Virus record (IMG/VR): IMGVR_UViG_2698536618_000030
DNA: 25,572 nt
From: a virus
Taxonomy: Duplodnaviria; Heunggongvirae; Uroviricota; Caudoviricetes
Direction: 5' to 3' (one strand)
Translations under genes and position numbers: made by a program
Shown here: one piece after another, positions 1-10,399 of the stretch
How the letters are laid out: each line of letters opens with the position of its first letter
How positions within the stretch are numbered: the first letter of the stretch is position 1
The notes under the pieces: generated by a model
Seen by the model: the letters and a program-made list of their open reading frames with translations, nothing else
Database searches by the model: none
Told to the model about the DNA's origin: nothing

Positions 1-456
1 GTGAACCTCTCACAAGACGGCATCAAATTACATCGCGGCAACTTCACCGCTATCGGTCGGCAGATCCAGCCTTATCTGGAGGAGGGCAAATGCTTTCGCA
101 TGGTGCTTAAACCGTGGCGTGAGAAACGCAGTCTTTCCCAGAATGCACTCAGCCACATGTGGTACAGCGAAATCAGTGAATACCTCATCAGCAGGGGTAA
201 AACGTTCGCCACTCCAGCTTGGGTAAAAGATGCTCTCAAACACACATATCTCGGTTATGAAACCAAAGACCTGGTTGATGTCGTAACCGGTGATATCACC
301 ACTATCCAGTCGTTACGCCATACCTCCGATCTTGATACCGGAGAGATGTATGTCTTCCTGTGTAAGGTTGAAGCCTGGGCGGTGAATATTGGCTGCCACC
401 TGACTATTCCGCAGAGCTGCGAGTTCCAGCTGCTCCGCGACAAGCAGGAGGCGTAA
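1..456 (+). CDS. ybcN: NinB/Orf-family protein, YbcN-like (151 aa); GTG at window position 1, so the true start could lie upstream
   Basis: ORF track 1..456; translation MNLSQDGIKLHRGNF... recalled as DLP12 YbcN; sits at head of ninE-ybcO-rusA array. Confidence 0.7.
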   Translation: MNLSQDGIKLHRGNFTAIGRQIQPYLEEGKCFRMVLKPWREKRSLSQNALSHMWYSEISEYLISRGKTFATPAWVKDALKHTYLGYETKDLVDVVTGDITTIQSLRHTSDLDTGEMYVFLCKVEAWAVNIGCHLTIPQSCEFQLLRDKQEA

Positions 457-626
457 TGGCTACACCGCTTATTCGTGTCATGAACGGACACATCTACAGA
501 GTATCAAATCGTCGTAAGCGTAAGCCTGAGCTGAAGCCATCCGAAATACCAACACTGCTCGGATATACCGCTAGCCTGGTTGATAAAAAATGGTTGCGAC
601 TGGCAGCAAGGAGGAATCATGGCTGA
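456..626 (+). CDS. ninE: NinE-family small protein (56 aa)
   Basis: Hand-translated [59 protein letters not shown]; ATG overlaps ybcN stop (TAATG); below the 60-aa cutoff so absent from ORF track. Confidence 0.65.
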   Translation: MATPLIRVMNGHIYRVSNRRKRKPELKPSEIPTLLGYTASLVDKKWLRLAARRNHG

Positions 627-909
627 TTTGAGAAAAGCAGCGCGTGGTCGGGAATGCCAGGTAAGAATCCCTGGCGTATGTAATGGCAATTCTGAAACGT
701 CTGTACTGGCACATATCCGGCTGGCTGGATTGTGCGGTACCGGTATCAAACCGCCAGACCTGATTGCCACCATTGCATGTTCTGCCTGCCACGACGAAAT
801 CGACCGCCGCACACATTTTGTCGATGCTGCATATGCAAAAGAATGCGCGCTGGAAGGTATGGCGAGAACACAGGTTATCTGGCTGAAAGAGGGGGTTATT
901 AAGGCGTGA
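619..909 (+). CDS. ybcO: YbcO-like DUF1364 putative nuclease (96 aa)
   Basis: ORF track 580..909; likely start at internal ATG 619 ([14 protein letters not shown]...) preceded by AGGAGG; Cys/His-rich; position between ninE and rusA as in DLP12. Confidence 0.7.
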
Positions 910-1268
910 ATACCTACAGTATCACATTACCCTGGCCTCCGAGCAATAATCGCTATTACCGCCATAATCGCGGGCGCACGCACGTCAGTGCAGAGGGGCA
1001 GGCATACCGCGATAACGTCGCCCGAATCATTAAAAGCGCAATGCTGGATATCGGCCTGGCTATGCCTGTGAAAATCCGCATTGAGTGCCACATGCCGGAT
1101 CGCCGTCGCCGTGACCTGGATAATCTGCAAAAAGCCGCTTTTGACGCACTCACTAAAGCAGGTTTCTGGCTGGATGATGCTCAGGTCGTTGATTACCGCG
1201 TTGTGAAGATGCCTGTTACCAAAGGTGGGAGGCTGGAACTGACCATCACCGAAATGGGGAATGAATGA
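906..1268 (+). CDS. rusA: RusA Holliday junction resolvase (120 aa)
   Basis: ORF 906..1268; [18 protein letters not shown]... matches the RusA family; start overlaps ybcO stop. Confidence 0.9.
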
Positions 1269-1405
1269 TGTTTGAGTTTAATATAGCAGAACTTCTTCGC
1301 CACCGCTGGGGGCGTCTGCGCTTATATCGTTTCCCCGGTTCTGTTTTGACCGATTACCGAATACTGAAGAATTACGCCAAAACCCTGACAGGAGCAGGAG
1401 TATGA
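1265..1405 (+). CDS. ylcG: YlcG-like small protein (46 aa)
   Basis: Hand-translated [46 protein letters not shown]; ATG overlaps rusA stop; below ORF-track size cutoff. Confidence 0.55.
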
Positions 1406-1490
1406 AGTCAGAGATAACAATCAACTAATACTGTTTTATTGATTTTTGCTTGTAATTGGCGTTCTGGTCTGATTTTTGTGGAGTAAGTTG

Positions 1491-1874
1491 ATGCGTGATA
1501 TTCAGATGGTTCTTGAGCGTTGGGGAGCGTGGGCGGCTAATAATCATGAAGATGTGACCTGGTCGTCCATTGCCGCCGGTTTTAAGGGATTAATTCCTTC
1601 AAAAGTAAAATCTCGCCCGCAATGTTGTGACGATGACGCGATGATCATTTGCGGGTGCATGGCCCGTCTGAAAAAGAACAACAGCGATTTGCACGATTTA
1701 TTAGTAGATTATTATGTAGTCGGTATGACATTCATGTCACTGGCAGGTAAGCATTGCTGCTCTGATGGTTATATCGGGAAAAGGTTACAAAAGGCTGAGG
1801 GCATAATTGAAGGGATGTTAATGGCATTAGATATCCGGTTAGAGATGGATATCGTTGTTAATAACTCTAATTAA
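1491..1874 (+). CDS. quuD: Late-gene antiterminator Q family (QuuD-like, 127 aa)
   Basis: ORF track 1476..1874 (TTG); ATG at 1491 gives [21 protein letters not shown]...; Cys-rich; positioned after nin region and before lysis genes. Confidence 0.8.
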
Positions 1875-1894
1875 TACGCCAATTATTTACTAAA

Positions 1895-1926
1895 AGTTAT
1901 TAAAAATGGGGCGTTGAAACGCCCCC
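1895..1926 (-). terminator. Candidate rho-independent terminator for the minus-strand porin transcript
   Basis: GGGGCG (1908-1913) pairs with CGCCCC (1920-1925); read on the minus strand the stem is followed by ATTTTTAAT; lies 3' of the porin gene. Confidence 0.4.
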
Positions 1927-2013
1927 AAAAATAAAGGGTAATATATAACAGAAGGTTTGTATAGTTAGAAGCAAGGTTGTGCTTCTAAAGGAAGTGGCTT
2001 GAGGGAGCCACTT

Positions 2014-2053
2014 ATATGTTGGGGAGGCAAAGCCTCCCACAACATATCTTTTA
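2014..2053 (+). terminator. Candidate plus-strand rho-independent terminator (tR'-like) downstream of Q
   Basis: About 15-bp stem ATATGTTGGGGAGGC / GCCTCCCACAACATAT with one bulged base and AAA loop, followed by CTTTT on the plus strand. Confidence 0.4.
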
Positions 2054-2062
2054 GTAATCAAA

Positions 2063-3145
2063 TTAGAACTGGTAAACCATACCTACAGCAACGATATCAT
2101 CGGTAGCAACGCCAGATGCTTTCGTGAAATCGCTCTTATCAATCAGGTTGATTTTGTAGTCAACAAAAGTGGACATATTTTTGTTGAAGTAATAGGTTGC
2201 ACCTACATCAACATATTCAACCAGGTCCTGATCACCCCAAACACCCAAGTCTTTTCCTTTAGAATGCAGGTAAGCAACGGATGGACGCAGGCCGAAGTCG
2301 AACTGATATTGTGCAACAGCTTCGAAGTTTTGTGCTTTTTTGGCAATATGGTTATTACCAAAAACAGTCATGTTCTGGGTTTCAGAATAGGTGGTGGCCA
2401 GATAGATGTTGTTCGCATCATATTTCAGACCAGCTGCCCATACTTCAGCATTTTGACCAGAAGCATTCAGACCGTTGTTACCGTAGATAACCTGATTATT
2501 AGTGCGATCAGATTTAGCATAGGTTGCACCTACACCGAATCCTTCATACTCATAAGTAGTGGAGAAACCGAAACCATCACCATTAGCTTCAGTTACGTCA
2601 GTGCGGTCATTTTTACCCTGATACTGAGCAGCAAAGTTCAGACCATCAACCAGACCAAAGAAGTCGTTGTTACGATAAGTTGCAACACCAGTGGTGCGAC
2701 CAGTCATGAACACATCTGTTTGAGTCCAAGTGTCACCACCGAATTCTGGCAGGACGTCAGTCCACGCACCGATGTCGTATGCTACACCGTAGTTACGGCC
2801 GTAATCGATGGAGCCGTAGTCACCGAATTTCAGGCCAGCGAAGGCAAGACGGGTTTTATCTTTGGAGGAACCTTGAGATTCAGCGCGGTTGCCTTTGAAT
2901 TCATATTCCCACTGACCGAAACCAGTCAGTTGATCGTTGATTTGGGTTTCACCTTTGAAGCCAAGACGGGCATAAGTAGTATCACCATCATCTGCATCAC
3001 TAGAGGAGAAGTAGTGCTTAGCATTAACTTTCCCGTACAGATCCAGCTTGTTACTGTCTTTATTATAAATTTCAGCTGCCTGAGCAGACATCGCCATCAG
3101 TACTGATGCAGCTACAGCAGAAATTGCCACTGTTAATTTTTTCAT
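2063..3145 (-). CDS. nmpC: General porin of the OmpC/OmpF/PhoE family, NmpC/Lc-like phage moron (360 aa)
   Basis: ORF 2063..3145 minus; signal peptide [30 protein letters not shown] mature N-terminus, C-terminal ...VGMVYQF; very close to DLP12 NmpC as I recall it. Confidence 0.9.
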
Positions 3146-3733
3146 CGTGAGCCCTTTTTTTTGAACTATTATTAAAAAATGATGTCACTGCGCGATAAAT
3201 ATTCATCTAATCAATGTGATTATTTCAAGATGTAAGTTTTAGTTTCTCATTTAATTTGTGAAGTAGATCTCTATTTTTATCTGAACTTTTTCTATCGAAA
3301 CCTATTTATGGCTCTTATTTGAACAAAAATAAACCTATTAGCTAATTTATATTAATGGCTGTTATTTATGGGGGGTCTATGATTCGATGGTTTAATTTAA
3401 ATTAACTAAAAATAACGCCGGAAATTATTTATTGGTTATTTGTTGAGGTTTTCTTATGTATTTGTGGTGGTGTTTTGAACACTCGGTAGCATTCTCATAA
3501 ATATCATTCAGTGGTTTACGTACGTAAAAAATTGGTTATGCTGTTAAGAGTGGTTACTTCGTCACACAGCTTAAACCCGCCGTCGAGCTGGTTTTTCCAT
3601 TTTTTGAGTCTCGATATTAGCTGATAACTCAATACCTGAGTTATTCACTGACTCCGAGTCTGTTACGTTTCTGCTTTTTTGCGATACGTTGTATTCCCTC
3701 AATTTACACCCGCTTTGTCTGCGAGGTGGGGTT
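3146..3733. promoter_or_regulatory. AT-rich intergenic region; expected to hold the porin promoter (minus strand) and possibly the late promoter/leader for the lysis cassette (plus strand)
   Basis: 588 bp with no ORF of plausible size, strongly AT-rich, flanked by divergent gene starts (porin at 3145, holin at 3734). No specific -35/-10 assigned. Confidence 0.3.
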
Positions 3734-3949
3734 ATGAAATCCATGGATAAGTTAACAACGGGTGTCGCCTATGGCACCTCAGCAGGTAGTGCCGGTTACT
3801 GGTTTTTACAGCTGCTCGATAAAGTCACGCCCTCACAGTGGGCAGCAATAGGTGTGCTGGGTAGCCTGGTATTTGGCCTGCTGACGTACCTGACAAACCT
3901 TTATTTCAAGATTAAAGAAGATAAGCGCAAGGCTGCGAGAGGTGAATAA
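3734..3949 (+). CDS. S: Class II holin, phage-21 S-type pinholin (71 aa) with dual start Met1/Met4
   Basis: ORF track 3689..3949; ATG at 3734 preceded by GAGGTGGGG gives [24 protein letters not shown]...; two TMDs and charged C-terminus; matches S21 as recalled. Confidence 0.9.
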
Positions 3950-4446
3950 TGCCTCCATCATTACGAAAAGCCGTTGCTGCTGCTATTGGTGGCGGAGCAA
4001 TTGCTATAGCATCAGTGTTAATCACTGGCCCAAGTGGTAACGATGGTCTGGAAGGTGTCAGCTACATACCATACAAAGATATTGTTGGTGTATGGACCGT
4101 ATGTCACGGGCATACAGGAAAAGACATCATGCTCGGTAAAACGTATACCAAAGCAGAATGCAAAGCACTCTTGAATAAAGACCTTGCCACTGTCGCCAGA
4201 CAAATTAACCCATACATCGAAGTCGATATACCGGAAACAACGCGCGGCGCTCTTTACTCATTCGTTTACAACGTGGGTGCTGGCAATTTCAGAACATCGA
4301 CGCTTCTTCGCAAAATAAACCAGGGCGATATCAAAGGCGCATGTGATCAGTTACGTCGCTGGACATATGCTGGCGGTAAGCAATGGAAAGGTCTCATGAC
4401 TCGTCGTGAGATTGAGCGTGAAATCTGTTTGTGGGGTCAGCAATGA
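3949..4446 (+). CDS. R: SAR endolysin (T4-lysozyme-like muramidase, phage-21 R-type, 165 aa)
   Basis: ORF 3949..4446; Gly/Ala-rich N-terminal SAR segment [20 protein letters not shown]; Glu35/Asp44/Thr50 in the expected spacing; start overlaps holin stop (TAATG). Confidence 0.9.
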
Positions 4447-4904
4447 ACAGAGTAACCGCGATTATCTCCGCTCTGGTTATCTGCATCATCGTCTGCCTGT
4501 CATGGGCTGTTAATCATTACCGTGATAACGCCATTACCTATAAAGCCCAGCGCGACAAAAATGCCAAAGAACTGAAGCTGGCGAACGCGGCAATTACTGA
4601 CATGCAGATGCGTCAGCGTGATGTTGCTGCGCTCGATGCAAAATACACGAAGGAGTTAGCTGATGCGAAAGCTGAAAATGATGCTCTGCGTGATGATGTT
4701 GCCGCTGGTCGTCGTCGGTTGCACATCAAAGCAGTCTGTCAGTCAGTGCGTGAAGCCACCACCGCCTCCGGCGTGGATAATGCAGCCTCCCCCCGACTGG
4801 CAGACACCGCTGAACAGGATTATTTCACCCTCAGAGAGAGGCTGATCACTATGCAAAAACAACTGGAAGGAACCCAGAAGTATATTAATGAGCAGTGCAG
4901 ATAG
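4443..4904 (+). CDS. Rz: Rz inner-membrane spanin (153 aa)
   Basis: ORF track 4431..4904; ATG 4443 overlaps R stop (ATGA); N-terminal TMD then coiled-coil-rich periplasmic domain. Confidence 0.85.
4663..4845 (+). CDS. Rz1: Rz1 outer-membrane lipoprotein spanin (60 aa), embedded in the +1 frame of Rz
   Basis: ORF 4663..4845; [20 protein letters not shown] lipobox, proline-rich (PPPPP) mature part; wholly inside Rz. Confidence 0.8.
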
Positions 4905-4935
4905 AGCTGCCCATATCGATGGGCAACTCATGCAA

Positions 4936-5229
4936 TTATTGTGAGCAATACACACGCGCTTCCAGCGGAGTATAAATGCCTAAAGTAATAAAACCGAGCA
5001 ATCCATTTACGAATGTTTGCTGGGTTTCTGTTTTAACAACATTTTCTGCGCCGCCACAAATTTTGGCTGCATCAACAGTTTTCTCCTGTCCAATTCCCGA
5101 AACGAAGAAGTGATGGGTGATGGTTTCCTTTGGTGTTACTGCTGTCGGTTTGTTTCCAACAGTAAACGTCTGTTGAGCACATCCTGTAATAAGCATTGCC
5201 AGAGCGGCAGAAAACAACATTTTTTTCAT
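4936..5229 (-). CDS. bor: Bor outer-membrane lipoprotein (97 aa)
   Basis: ORF track 4936..5277 minus; start at internal Met (CAT at 5227-5229) gives MKKMLFSAALAMLITGCAQQ... with lipobox LITGC; matches lambda Bor. Confidence 0.9.
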   Translation of the reverse strand: MKKMLFSAALAMLITGCAQQTFTVGNKPTAVTPKETITHHFFVSGIGQEKTVDAAKICGGAENVVKTETQQTFVNGLLGFITLGIYTPLEARVYCSQ

Positions 5230-5589
5230 CTTATTATCCTGCATTGTTAAAAACGGCAGAATCCTATGTGACAACAATTAAACGATAGTTAAATGGATTG
5301 ATGAAAATTAAAACTATATAGGTGGATGCTCAGCCTATTGGAGGAGGGGGGGCACTCAGAATCCTGTGGAATGAAATAAACCGCTCTATCTGTCCATTAC
5401 CCTTTTAGCTGCGCTGTATCGTCGCCGTATTCCCGCATTAACCATGACCGTAGCCCGACGGGGAATTCCTTCTGCGTGAGTGTGCGGGAATAATCAAAAA
5501 CGATGCACACGGGGTTTTACTGTGCTGACAGACGCAGGGTTACCCTCATAGTCGCTTTTCCGGTGCGATGGTGGAAGAAACCGGGATGT

Positions 5590-5784
5590 TCATCCATCAT
5601 CACTTTGGATTGATGTATATGCTCTCTTTTCTGACGTTAGTCTCCGACGGCAGGCTTCAATGACCCAGGCTGAGAAATTCCCAGACCCTTTTTGCTCAAG
5701 AGCGATGTTAATTTGTTCAATCATTTGGTTAGGAAAGCGGATGTTGCGGGTTGTTGTTCTGCGGGTTCTGTTCTTCGTTGACAT
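5590..5784 (-). CDS. ylcI: Small YlcI-like (DUF3950-type) protein, 64 aa, function unknown
   Basis: ORF 5590..5784 minus; MSTKNRTRRTTTRNIRFPNQMIEQINIALEQKGSGNFSAWVIEACRRRL...; basic N-terminus; position just upstream of cos/Nu1 as ylcI is in DLP12 (from memory). Confidence 0.5.
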   Translation of the reverse strand: MSTKNRTRRTTTRNIRFPNQMIEQINIALEQKGSGNFSAWVIEACRRRLTSEKRAYTSIQSDDG

Positions 5785-5930
5785 GAGGTTGCCCCGTATT
5801 CAGTGTCGCTGATTTGTATTGTCTGAAGTTGTTTTTACGTTAAGTTGATGCAGATCAATTAATACGATACCTGCGTCATAATTGATTATTTGACGTGGTT
5901 TGATGGCGTAGATGCACGTTGTGACATGTA

Positions 5931-6172
5931 GATGATAATTATTATCATTTTGCGGGTCCTTTCCGGCGATCCGACAGGTTACGGGGCGGCGACCTCGCGG
6001 GTTTTCGCTATTTATGAAAATTTTCCGGTTTAAGGCGTTTCCGTTCTTCTTCGTCATAACTTAATGTTTTTATTTAAAATACCCTCTGAAAAGAAAGGAA
6101 ACGACAGGTGCTGAAAGCGAGCTTTTTGGCCTCTGTCGTTTCCTTTCTCTGTTTTTGTCCGTGGAATGAACA
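5931..6172. other. cos: cos DNA packaging site: cosQ/cosN/cosB region, cosN 12-nt cohesive end GGGCGGCGACCT at 5984..5995
   Basis: Sequence ...CAGGTTACG|GGGCGGCGACCTCGCGGGTTTTCGCTATTTATGAAAATTTTCCGG... matches the lambda genome right-end/left-end junction as I recall it; directly upstream of Nu1. Confidence 0.85.
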
Positions 6173-6692
6173 ATGGAAGTCAACAAAAAGCAGCTGGCTG
6201 ACATTTTCGGTGCGAGTATCCGTACCATTCAGAACTGGCAGGAACAGGGAATGCCCGTTCTGCGAGGCGGTGGCAAGGGTAATGAGGTGCTTTATGACTC
6301 TGCCGCCGTCATAAAATGGTATGCCGAAAGGGATGCTGAAATTGAGAACGAAAAGCTGCGCCGGGAAGTTGAAGAACTGCGGCAGGCCAGCGAGACAGAT
6401 CTCCAGCCAGGGACTATTGAGTACGAACGCCATCGACTTACGCGTGCGCAGGCCGACGCACAGGAGCTGAAAAATGCCAGAGACTCCGCTGAAGTGGTGG
6501 AAACCGCATTCTGTACTTTCGTGCTGTCGCGGATCGCAGGTGAAATTGCCAGTATTCTCGACGGGATCCCCCTGTCGGTGCAGCGGCGTTTTCCGGAACT
6601 GGAAAACCGACATGTTGATTTCCTGAAACGGGATATCATCAAAGCCATGAACAAAGCAGCCGCGCTGGATGAACTGATACCGGGGTTGCTGA

Positions 6693-6718
<26 letters not shown>
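6173..6718 (+). CDS. nu1: Terminase small subunit Nu1 (181 aa)
   Basis: ORF 6173..6718; MEVNKKQLADIFGASIRTIQNWQEQGMPV... winged-HTH N-terminus; lambda Nu1. Confidence 0.95.

Positions 6719-10399
<3,681 letters not shown>

Follow-up and report, generated by a model that had tools for sequence, protein, structure and literature searches.

Does RNA polymerase modified by the antiterminator Q have to cross an antisense porin gene to reach the lysis genes, or does the late promoter lie beyond that gene? The question is raised by the window analysed here, that is, the whole 25,572-nucleotide stretch of the caudoviricete virus record IMGVR_UViG_2698536618_000030. A sequence-only reading of it had left two arrangements, with the late promoter either just downstream of Q or in the AT-rich spacer next to the holin gene, with Q acting more than 1.8 kb from its own gene, and had held that each of them couples porin expression to late transcription. 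The second arrangement stood up and the coupling did not: very probably, the lc/nmpC cassette is self-contained and lies between Q and the late promoter pR', and Q acts in trans on a pR' that faces away from the porin. What is clarified is the architecture, in which the Q-dependent late promoter separates the porin gene, upstream of it, from the lysis genes; the porin observation itself is a rediscovery, lc/nmpC having been sequenced in 1986 and being present in nearly half of the complete E. coli genomes.

Layout of the locus and identity of the porin gene

At its left end, the window carries a nin/Q/lysis region of lambdoid type (Table 1). The Q protein shares 99% identity with QuuD of K-12. 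A lineage-specific tail of 7 aa follows its conserved core, which reaches to ...LEMD (nt 1850) and has 78-82% identity with Q from 933W-type Stx phages. With phage 21, the window shares the PF06530 family of Q21 and a phage-21-type holin with an adjoining lysozyme; the match of its Q to the solved Q21 structures (6P18, 6JNX) is distant (E 7.6e-8 over ~80 aa).

Table 1. Features of the Q-porin-lysis region, in window coordinates
Feature	Position	Strand	Remarks
NinB-like gene	1-456
YbcO	580-909
RusA	906-1268
YlcG-like ORF	1265-1405
Q antiterminator gene, QuuD type, Q21 family	1491-1874	+	127 aa; PF06530, E 8.5e-54
Porin 3' UTR, IpeX sRNA-equivalent	1896-2062	minus	three stable hairpins and intrinsic terminator
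Porin intrinsic terminator	hairpin 1908-1925, U tract 1901-1907	minus
Porin gene lc/nmpC	2063-3145	minus	360 aa; signal peptide; C-terminal ...VYQF
AT-rich porin regulatory region	3146-3513		28.5% GC
Probable sigma-E promoter of the lysis cassette	3161-3195	+	tGAACTa-N16-TCACT; start ~3194
CRP site annotated upstream of lc in PA-2	3254-3274	minus	ATTTGTGAAGTAGATCTCTAT on the + strand
Late promoter pR'	3515-3549	+	homology to start-mapped Stx-phage pR'
pR' -35	3515-3520	+	TTTACG
Candidate Q binding element	3515-3528	+	palindrome TTTACGTACGTAAA; overlaps -35
pR' spacer	3521-3536	+	16 nt
pR' -10	3537-3542	+	TATGCT
pR' +1	3549	+	A in gttaagAgtgg
Late leader	3549-3733	+	185 nt; terminal hairpin includes the S ribosome-binding site
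Promoter-proximal hairpin and U tract (+25 to +58)	3573-3606	+	homolog of the first post-pR' terminator in Stx phages
Lysis cassette S-R-Rz/Rz1	3734-4904	+
Phage-21-type holin (S21-type)	3734-3949	+
Lysozyme	3949-4446	+
Rz	4443-4904	+	Rz1 embedded at 4663-4845
bor		minus	after Rz/Rz1; then terminase

The porin ORF matches the Pfam family Porin_1 (PF00267) over profile positions 1-337 of 337 (E 2.6e-151) and falls in the OmpC subfamily of NCBIfam (511.6 bits, cut-off 484), which bears out the claim of a complete OmpC-family porin gene lying antisense between Q and the holin gene. Among solved structures, OmpK37, OmpC, and PhoE are closest to it (E 1e-132 to 1e-135), and the solved OmpC chains are aligned to it from residue 24; the mature part begins with AEIYNK after 23 residues, the length annotated for the signal peptide of lc in the PA-2 record, and ends in ...GMVYQF, with Phe as the last residue. 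The product would be a 16-strand trimeric beta-barrel diffusion pore.

Judged by its sequence, the locus is the long-known and already described lc/nmpC lysogenic-conversion porin cassette of PA-2/DLP12-type lambdoid phages. Specifically, the PA-2 lc record (J02580; Blasband, Marcotte and Schnaitman 1986) covers the same locus in the order Q 3' end, antisense lc, spacer, S, R, and Rz, is 93% identical in nucleotides to window 1837-4636, and has an lc CDS that corresponds exactly to 2063-3145. The ~7% of differing nucleotides lie mostly in the porin gene and at 3280-3420 of the AT-rich region, and the spacer at 3440-3740 is nearly base-for-base the same, including a weakened hairpin and a 16-nt leader insert. 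The DLP12 (qsr') prophage of K-12 carries nmpC/ipeX/quuD-essD in the same gene order, with a porin that is 90% identical in amino acids over NmpC fragment 1 (the differences are concentrated at aa 181-235 and 263-270), although K-12 nmpC is interrupted by IS5 and the porin gene of the window is intact. The nmpC gene is the E. coli counterpart of Salmonella ompD and a target of RybB, and the insertion keeps it silent in K-12 (PMC3333887). Of 5426 complete E. coli genomes, 2393 contain the 2.6-kb region 1400-4000 at a coverage of at least 80%, with the annotated order quuD, porin, essD, rrrD, and the locus layout recurs in 36 phage records. PA-2 lysogens make the Lc porin ("protein 2") and lose OmpC and OmpF, OmpC being the receptor of PA-2, and the Q-lysis block of DLP12 is functional in lambda qsr' hybrids.

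The spacer between Q and the porin gene

Were the late promoter located directly downstream of Q (~1914-1965), the hairpins at 1968-2048 would act as tR', and Q-modified polymerase would run antisense through the whole porin gene and then the AT-rich region to S. This layout could draw on a weak promoter-like match (GTAATA-16-TATAGT at 1938-1965, 8/12), on a strong plus-strand hairpin at 2014-2048 followed by CUUUUAG (-22.7 kcal/mol), and on the habit of most relatives, in which pR' comes straight after Q (47 of 72 loci). We consider it highly improbable, however, given that a sensitive search of phage genomes found no homolog of 1851-2062 beside a related porin-less Q, all 36 phage records that match this sequence being porin-bearing, that 1875-2062 contains neither a match to a profile of seven pR' modules nor the clade-specific palindrome described below, that its structures fit a role on the minus strand, and that a full homolog of a mapped pR' is present at 3515-3549. 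The first of the two arrangements of the sequence-only reading is not supported.

The 1875-2062 spacer is instead best read as a part of the porin cassette and not as a Q-linked promoter region, since it fits a minus-strand role as IpeX and terminator. On the minus strand, it has a predicted fold of -58.5 kcal/mol (z -7.9) and a predicted terminator, and it is near-identical to the nmpC-quuD spacer of K-12. IpeX is a 167-nt RNA that is processed from the transcript of the DLP12 phage porin and lowers OmpC (PMC12197685); in the window, the terminator U tract is reached ~160-167 nt after the porin stop codon, a length that equals the reported size of IpeX. A search of window 1-7000 against Rfam in E-value mode returned no IpeX family and only two chance-level miRNA matches.

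Position of the late promoter

Transcript evidence for a promoter of this type comes from other phages. In Stx phages, dRNA-seq mapped the pR' start to a point 258 nt ahead of the tR' 3' end determined by Term-seq (Sy et al., PMC7547250); in Sakai Sp5, this distance, measured upstream from where the tR' U tract ends, leads to the A of gataagAgtgg, which lies 7 nt after TATCAT, itself 16 nt after TTTACG. In 933W-derived records, these 28 bp carry the annotation "pR', putative late promoter", with a terminator feature after them. The window has the homologous module on the S side of the porin gene, where, as in the pR'-tR' region of 933W/Sakai (StxS sRNA), TTTACG, a palindrome, a 16-nt spacer, TATnnT, a start at the A of AAGAGTGG, and a hairpin with a U tract follow one another. 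Specifically, a word-size-7 blastn aligned 3514-3596 at 76-77% identity with the final 14 nt of Q and the ~70 nt that follow in Stx2 II and YYZ-2008, and the profile of seven pR' modules gives a single nhmmer match in the window, at 3498-3613 (E 1.4e-31). Moreover, the -35 element, the palindrome, the -10 element, and the initial transcribed region are identical in K-12 DLP12, and PA-2 is identical at the promoter.

This homology supports a pR' on the S side of the porin gene that fires away from the porin, so that late transcription need not cross it. The distance to the Q stop codon is 1640 nt; the porin ATG lies 369 nt behind the promoter, and S begins 185 nt further downstream. Since pR' points away and Q-modified RNA polymerase would not enter the porin gene, the coupling of porin expression to late transcription that had been presented as obligatory is not supported. 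The built-in promoter scan found no site of at least 9/12 in either spacer flanking the porin gene, and pR', which scores only 8/12 against the sigma-70 consensus, emerges only when the threshold is relaxed to 8/12.

The late leader

The leader between pR' and S folds at -52 kcal/mol (z -2.9) and shares ~75% identity with the sequence immediately preceding the holin gene of SfIV. Its promoter-proximal hairpin, whose homolog in L008 is annotated as a "possible rho-independent terminator", would be the site of termination in the absence of Q, but its predicted stability varies among relatives, from -5.8 kcal/mol in the window and PA-2 to -12 in K-12 and -14.8 in Stx2 II. A G-to-T change accounts for the weakening from -12 to -5.8 kcal/mol in the window and PA-2, whereas in K-12 DLP12 the hairpin is of the stronger form (GAGCGGG) and the 16-nt insert in the leader is missing; 22 of the 23 loci with the G-to-T change also have this insert. 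A second terminator was not found in the 185-nt leader, in which the U run of the 16-nt insert sits in a loop and not after a stem. Likewise, +1 to +25 of the window showed no clear match to a sigma-dependent pause element (TAnnnT, with A2 and T6); the pause-element position (+8 to +13) reads TACTTC, without the T at position 6, against TACATT in 933W. The weak hairpin and the lack of another terminator and of a clear pause element weigh against the pR' reading, and they do not account for the silence of the late genes in the lysogen.

The AT-rich region and the control of the porin gene

The 588 bp that had been described as AT-rich DNA (3146-3733) are two units. The description fits 3146-3513, the lowest-GC 368-bp stretch in the window (28.5% GC, the window as a whole having 54.2%), but is too broad, as 3514-3733 has 42% GC and is a separate functional unit composed of the late promoter and its leader. 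The porin cassette would be a leftward unit made of the AT-rich regulatory region with the PA-2-annotated CRP site, the ORF, the structured IpeX 3' UTR, and its own terminator, placed in the gap between the Q gene and the promoter targeted by Q. The CRP site was positioned by aligning the misc_binding feature 1363-1383 of J02580 to the window; a second CRP site of the PA-2 record maps to 3549-3569, where it coincides with +1 to +21 of pR'. Among the traits of a moron, the cassette has its own terminator and a composition unlike that of its flanks, and its promoter matches reach only 8/12: several sigma-70 candidates of this weak score occur on the minus strand of the AT-rich region, none of them convincing. 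The composition, together with the presence/absence polymorphism of the cassette, is consistent with a mobile element and agrees with the horizontal acquisition that had been suggested. The likewise suggested silencing by H-NS would be plausible given the base composition; the literature search for H-NS binding at nmpC yielded nothing specific.

In Stx phages, pR' overlaps the Q stop codon, and the tRNAs and stx lie downstream of pR'/tR', inside the late operon; in the window, by contrast, the cargo is upstream of pR', antisense, and outside the late operon. Because it stands outside the late operon, unlike stx, the porin gene would be a gene expressed in the lysogen and not a late gene, presumably transcribed from a promoter of its own. 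The couplings that could still link the porin to the phage programme are early read-through past Q, a sigma-E promoter at ~3161-3195, and the proximity of divergent promoters, which would lie ~300 bp apart.

Early transcription would affect the porin if N-antiterminated pR transcripts continued past Q and ran antisense through IpeX and the porin gene, shutting the porin off after induction. The convergent geometry of Q and the porin gene would permit it, as only hairpins lie between them, one of which, at 2014-2054, is terminator-like on the plus strand, and the cargo at this position is predominantly antisense in other phages too. The same plus-strand hairpin may, on the other hand, stop unmodified polymerase, and the early antiterminator of the phage and its reach lie outside the window, so this silencing is put forward only tentatively.

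A second coupling would arise if, in the prophage, the lysis genes were transcribed mainly from a host sigma-E promoter next to the porin start codon, in addition to pR', in which case envelope stress would raise the lysis genes and lower the porin. In PMC7918800, which cites Rueggeberg 2013 and 2015, the DLP12 lysis cassette is described as controlled by RpoE and Q. The primers given there map to window 3073 and ~3860, and their "-121 to +650" numbering (from Rueggeberg 2015) would place +1 at 3194, where tGAACTa-N16-TCACT fits the sigma-E consensus and is, by our own reading, a probable sigma-E motif. The numbering may, however, give the distance from the essD ATG with its sign swapped, so that the sigma-E start site is uncertain, and any interference of sigma-E transcripts with the porin promoter is pure inference on our part. 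A dominant role of this promoter is therefore regarded as possible but rather unlikely.

A palindrome that follows the Q subtype

The -35 element of pR' is overlapped by an inverted repeat that is conserved together with the type of Q. Specifically, all 42 genome loci with a Q of 63% or higher identity to that of the window, 933W, or the Morganella type, drawn from more than 12 genera, have TTTACG(TA/AT)CGTAAAA-N8-9-TAT..T-G(A/T)TAAGAGTG after Q. More distant Q clades have other palindromes at the same place, namely ACGCGTACGC, GCGGTCCGC, and TGTAATTACA. The relation also holds among 120 IMG/VR loci that were picked solely by an identical 20-nt initial transcribed region and in which Q is 30 to 2927 nt away: wherever the motif could be classified and an upstream Q was present in the locus (88 of 88), the spacer motif agrees with the subtype of that Q (49/49, 16/16, and 23/23).

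As the palindrome follows the Q subtype in more than 100 loci of many genera, TTTACGTACGTAAA is probably the Q binding site, although linkage and shared ancestry may explain a part of the covariation. A position in the -35/spacer zone fits this role, as the Q21 site, a TGAGCA direct repeat, lies between the -35 and -10 elements (PMC6606751). For the 933W/QuuD clade, inverted repeats, unlike the direct repeat of Q21, would then be predicted as Q binding sites. A Q21-type site was looked for as well and is absent from the window. According to the proposed mechanism, Q produced from 1491-1874 would diffuse to its binding element, probably the palindrome, and load onto RNA polymerase starting at A3549, and the modified polymerase would then pass the promoter-proximal hairpin and the leader to transcribe S-R-Rz/Rz1.

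Cargo between Q and pR' in related phages

Among loci with a related Q (mostly a set of 80 genome loci), the pR' profile matches 72, the reference loci being counted, in Escherichia, Citrobacter, Pantoea, Proteus, Xenorhabdus, Photorhabdus, Providencia, Morganella, Yersinia, Erwinia, Serratia, and other genera. In the 47 loci with an adjacent promoter, the module begins at most 60 nt from the Q stop codon and often overlaps it, whereas in 22 of the 72 it lies 0.65-2.9 kb from Q and the gap is filled mostly by minus-strand genes. Phage ev087 has a Q 89% identical to that of the window, yet carries no pR' module, a point against the proposed pairing of Q and promoter.

The porin gene is thus one of several cargoes found in the gap, the others being genes for KAP-family NTPases, for NA37-type proteins (together with a partner gene), and for a DUF6731 protein, as well as unannotated genes in SfIV and Stx2a_1447, two phages that likewise carry mostly antisense cargo between Q and the pR' module. 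The SfIV protein gp49 (356 aa, antisense, in the same position) is not a porin and has no Pfam or PADLOC match; family searches gave no assignment for the cargo genes of Stx2a_1447.

These loci suggest, with about even confidence, that the Q-pR' junction is a recurrent insertion slot of Q21-family lambdoid phages across Enterobacterales, whose cargo would be mostly antisense, upstream of pR', and outside Q-driven late transcription in the lysogen, would face convergent early read-through after induction, and would leave each clade with its own palindrome across the gap. Such a slot, together with clade palindromes that track Q, may help in the annotation of late promoters and in the finding of prophage cargo. 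Lastly, the 1.64-kb gap between Q and pR' occurs in plaque-forming phages, and phage 434B, which acquired the DLP12 block with IS5 in nmpC, has a gap of 2.86 kb, indicating that the Q of this clade can act over 1.6-2.9 kb.

Inverted repeats at the promoter following Q

Each clade of Q21-family antiterminators represented in the window and in the comparison loci L013-L091 has its own palindrome, which overlaps the -35 element and the spacer of the promoter that follows the Q gene. These clade-specific palindromes suggest that the Q binding sites of these clades are inverted repeats, in contrast to Q21, which has direct TGAGCA repeats. The window holds a second exact match to TTACGNNCGTAA, within the porin coding sequence, and K-12 nmpC also has it; this porin-internal match is probably a chance occurrence driven by coding.

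In phage ev087, Q is 89% identical to the window Q, and the two proteins differ in a stretch that reads KHGRSDCWIGRMLQ in one and another 14-residue sequence in the other. Past the ev087 Q gene, the palindrome module was not detected; what comes next there is another promoter-like region and the Stx-type tR' hairpin, and then an antisense blc lipocalin gene.

Cargo and tandem arrays after Q

The Q/pR' junction is a recurrent cargo slot: Q and the late promoter pR' are separated by 0.65-2.9 kb with cargo in 22 of the 72 loci matched by the promoter module. The cargo is mainly antisense; KAP NTPases, NA37-type pairs and DUF6731 proteins are among it, as are unknowns. PADLOC gave no match for any of the four slot cargos tested. 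In two Serratia loci, a 109-112-bp unit is tandemly repeated. Since every copy combines the clade palindrome with a -10-like hexamer and a terminator hairpin, these arrays are repeated promoter-terminator modules.

Features of the Q-pR' region and of the late leader
Feature	Position	Context
Palindrome TTACG-NN-CGTAA	window 3515-3528; L013-L091	just past Q genes in L013-L091
Palindromes ACGCGTACGC, GCGGTCCGC, TGTAATTACA	L013-L091 set	-35/spacer of promoter after Q
Second TTACGNNCGTAA match (TTACGGCCGTAA)	window 2793-2804	porin coding sequence
ev087 region	L002 4379-5060	
Cargo slot	L005 3364-5878; L009 863-2482	between Q and promoter module
Cargo slot	L021, L054, L056, L057, L062, L066, L067, L069, L074, L078-L082, L084, L091	Q to promoter module
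Array, ~7.7 copies	L087 6465-7319	immediately 3' of Q gene
Array, three copies (nhmmer)	L088 6457-6790	
G-to-T change (GAGCTGG)	window 3588	promoter-proximal hairpin
16-nt insert	window 3669-3684	leader
Stx phage hairpin	L001 4480-4506; L006 770-797	about +25..+52 of pR' transcript
Second annotated CRP site, PA-2	window 3549-3569	+1..+21

Promoter-proximal hairpin and late leader

In the PA-2 lineage, a G-to-T substitution weakens the promoter-proximal hairpin (-5.8 kcal/mol, against -12 in K-12), and this weakening occurs together with a leader insert containing CTGCTTTTTTGCG in 22 of 23 loci. The Stx phages have a strong hairpin that resembles a terminator and carries seven U residues. Because the published terminated pR' RNA is 258 nt long (PMC7547250), polymerase apparently either passes through this hairpin or pauses at it. 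Lastly, of the CRP sites given in the PA-2 record of 1986, the second falls precisely on +1..+21 of the conserved initial transcribed region of the late promoter; it may be a misassigned conserved late-leader element or may have a dual role.
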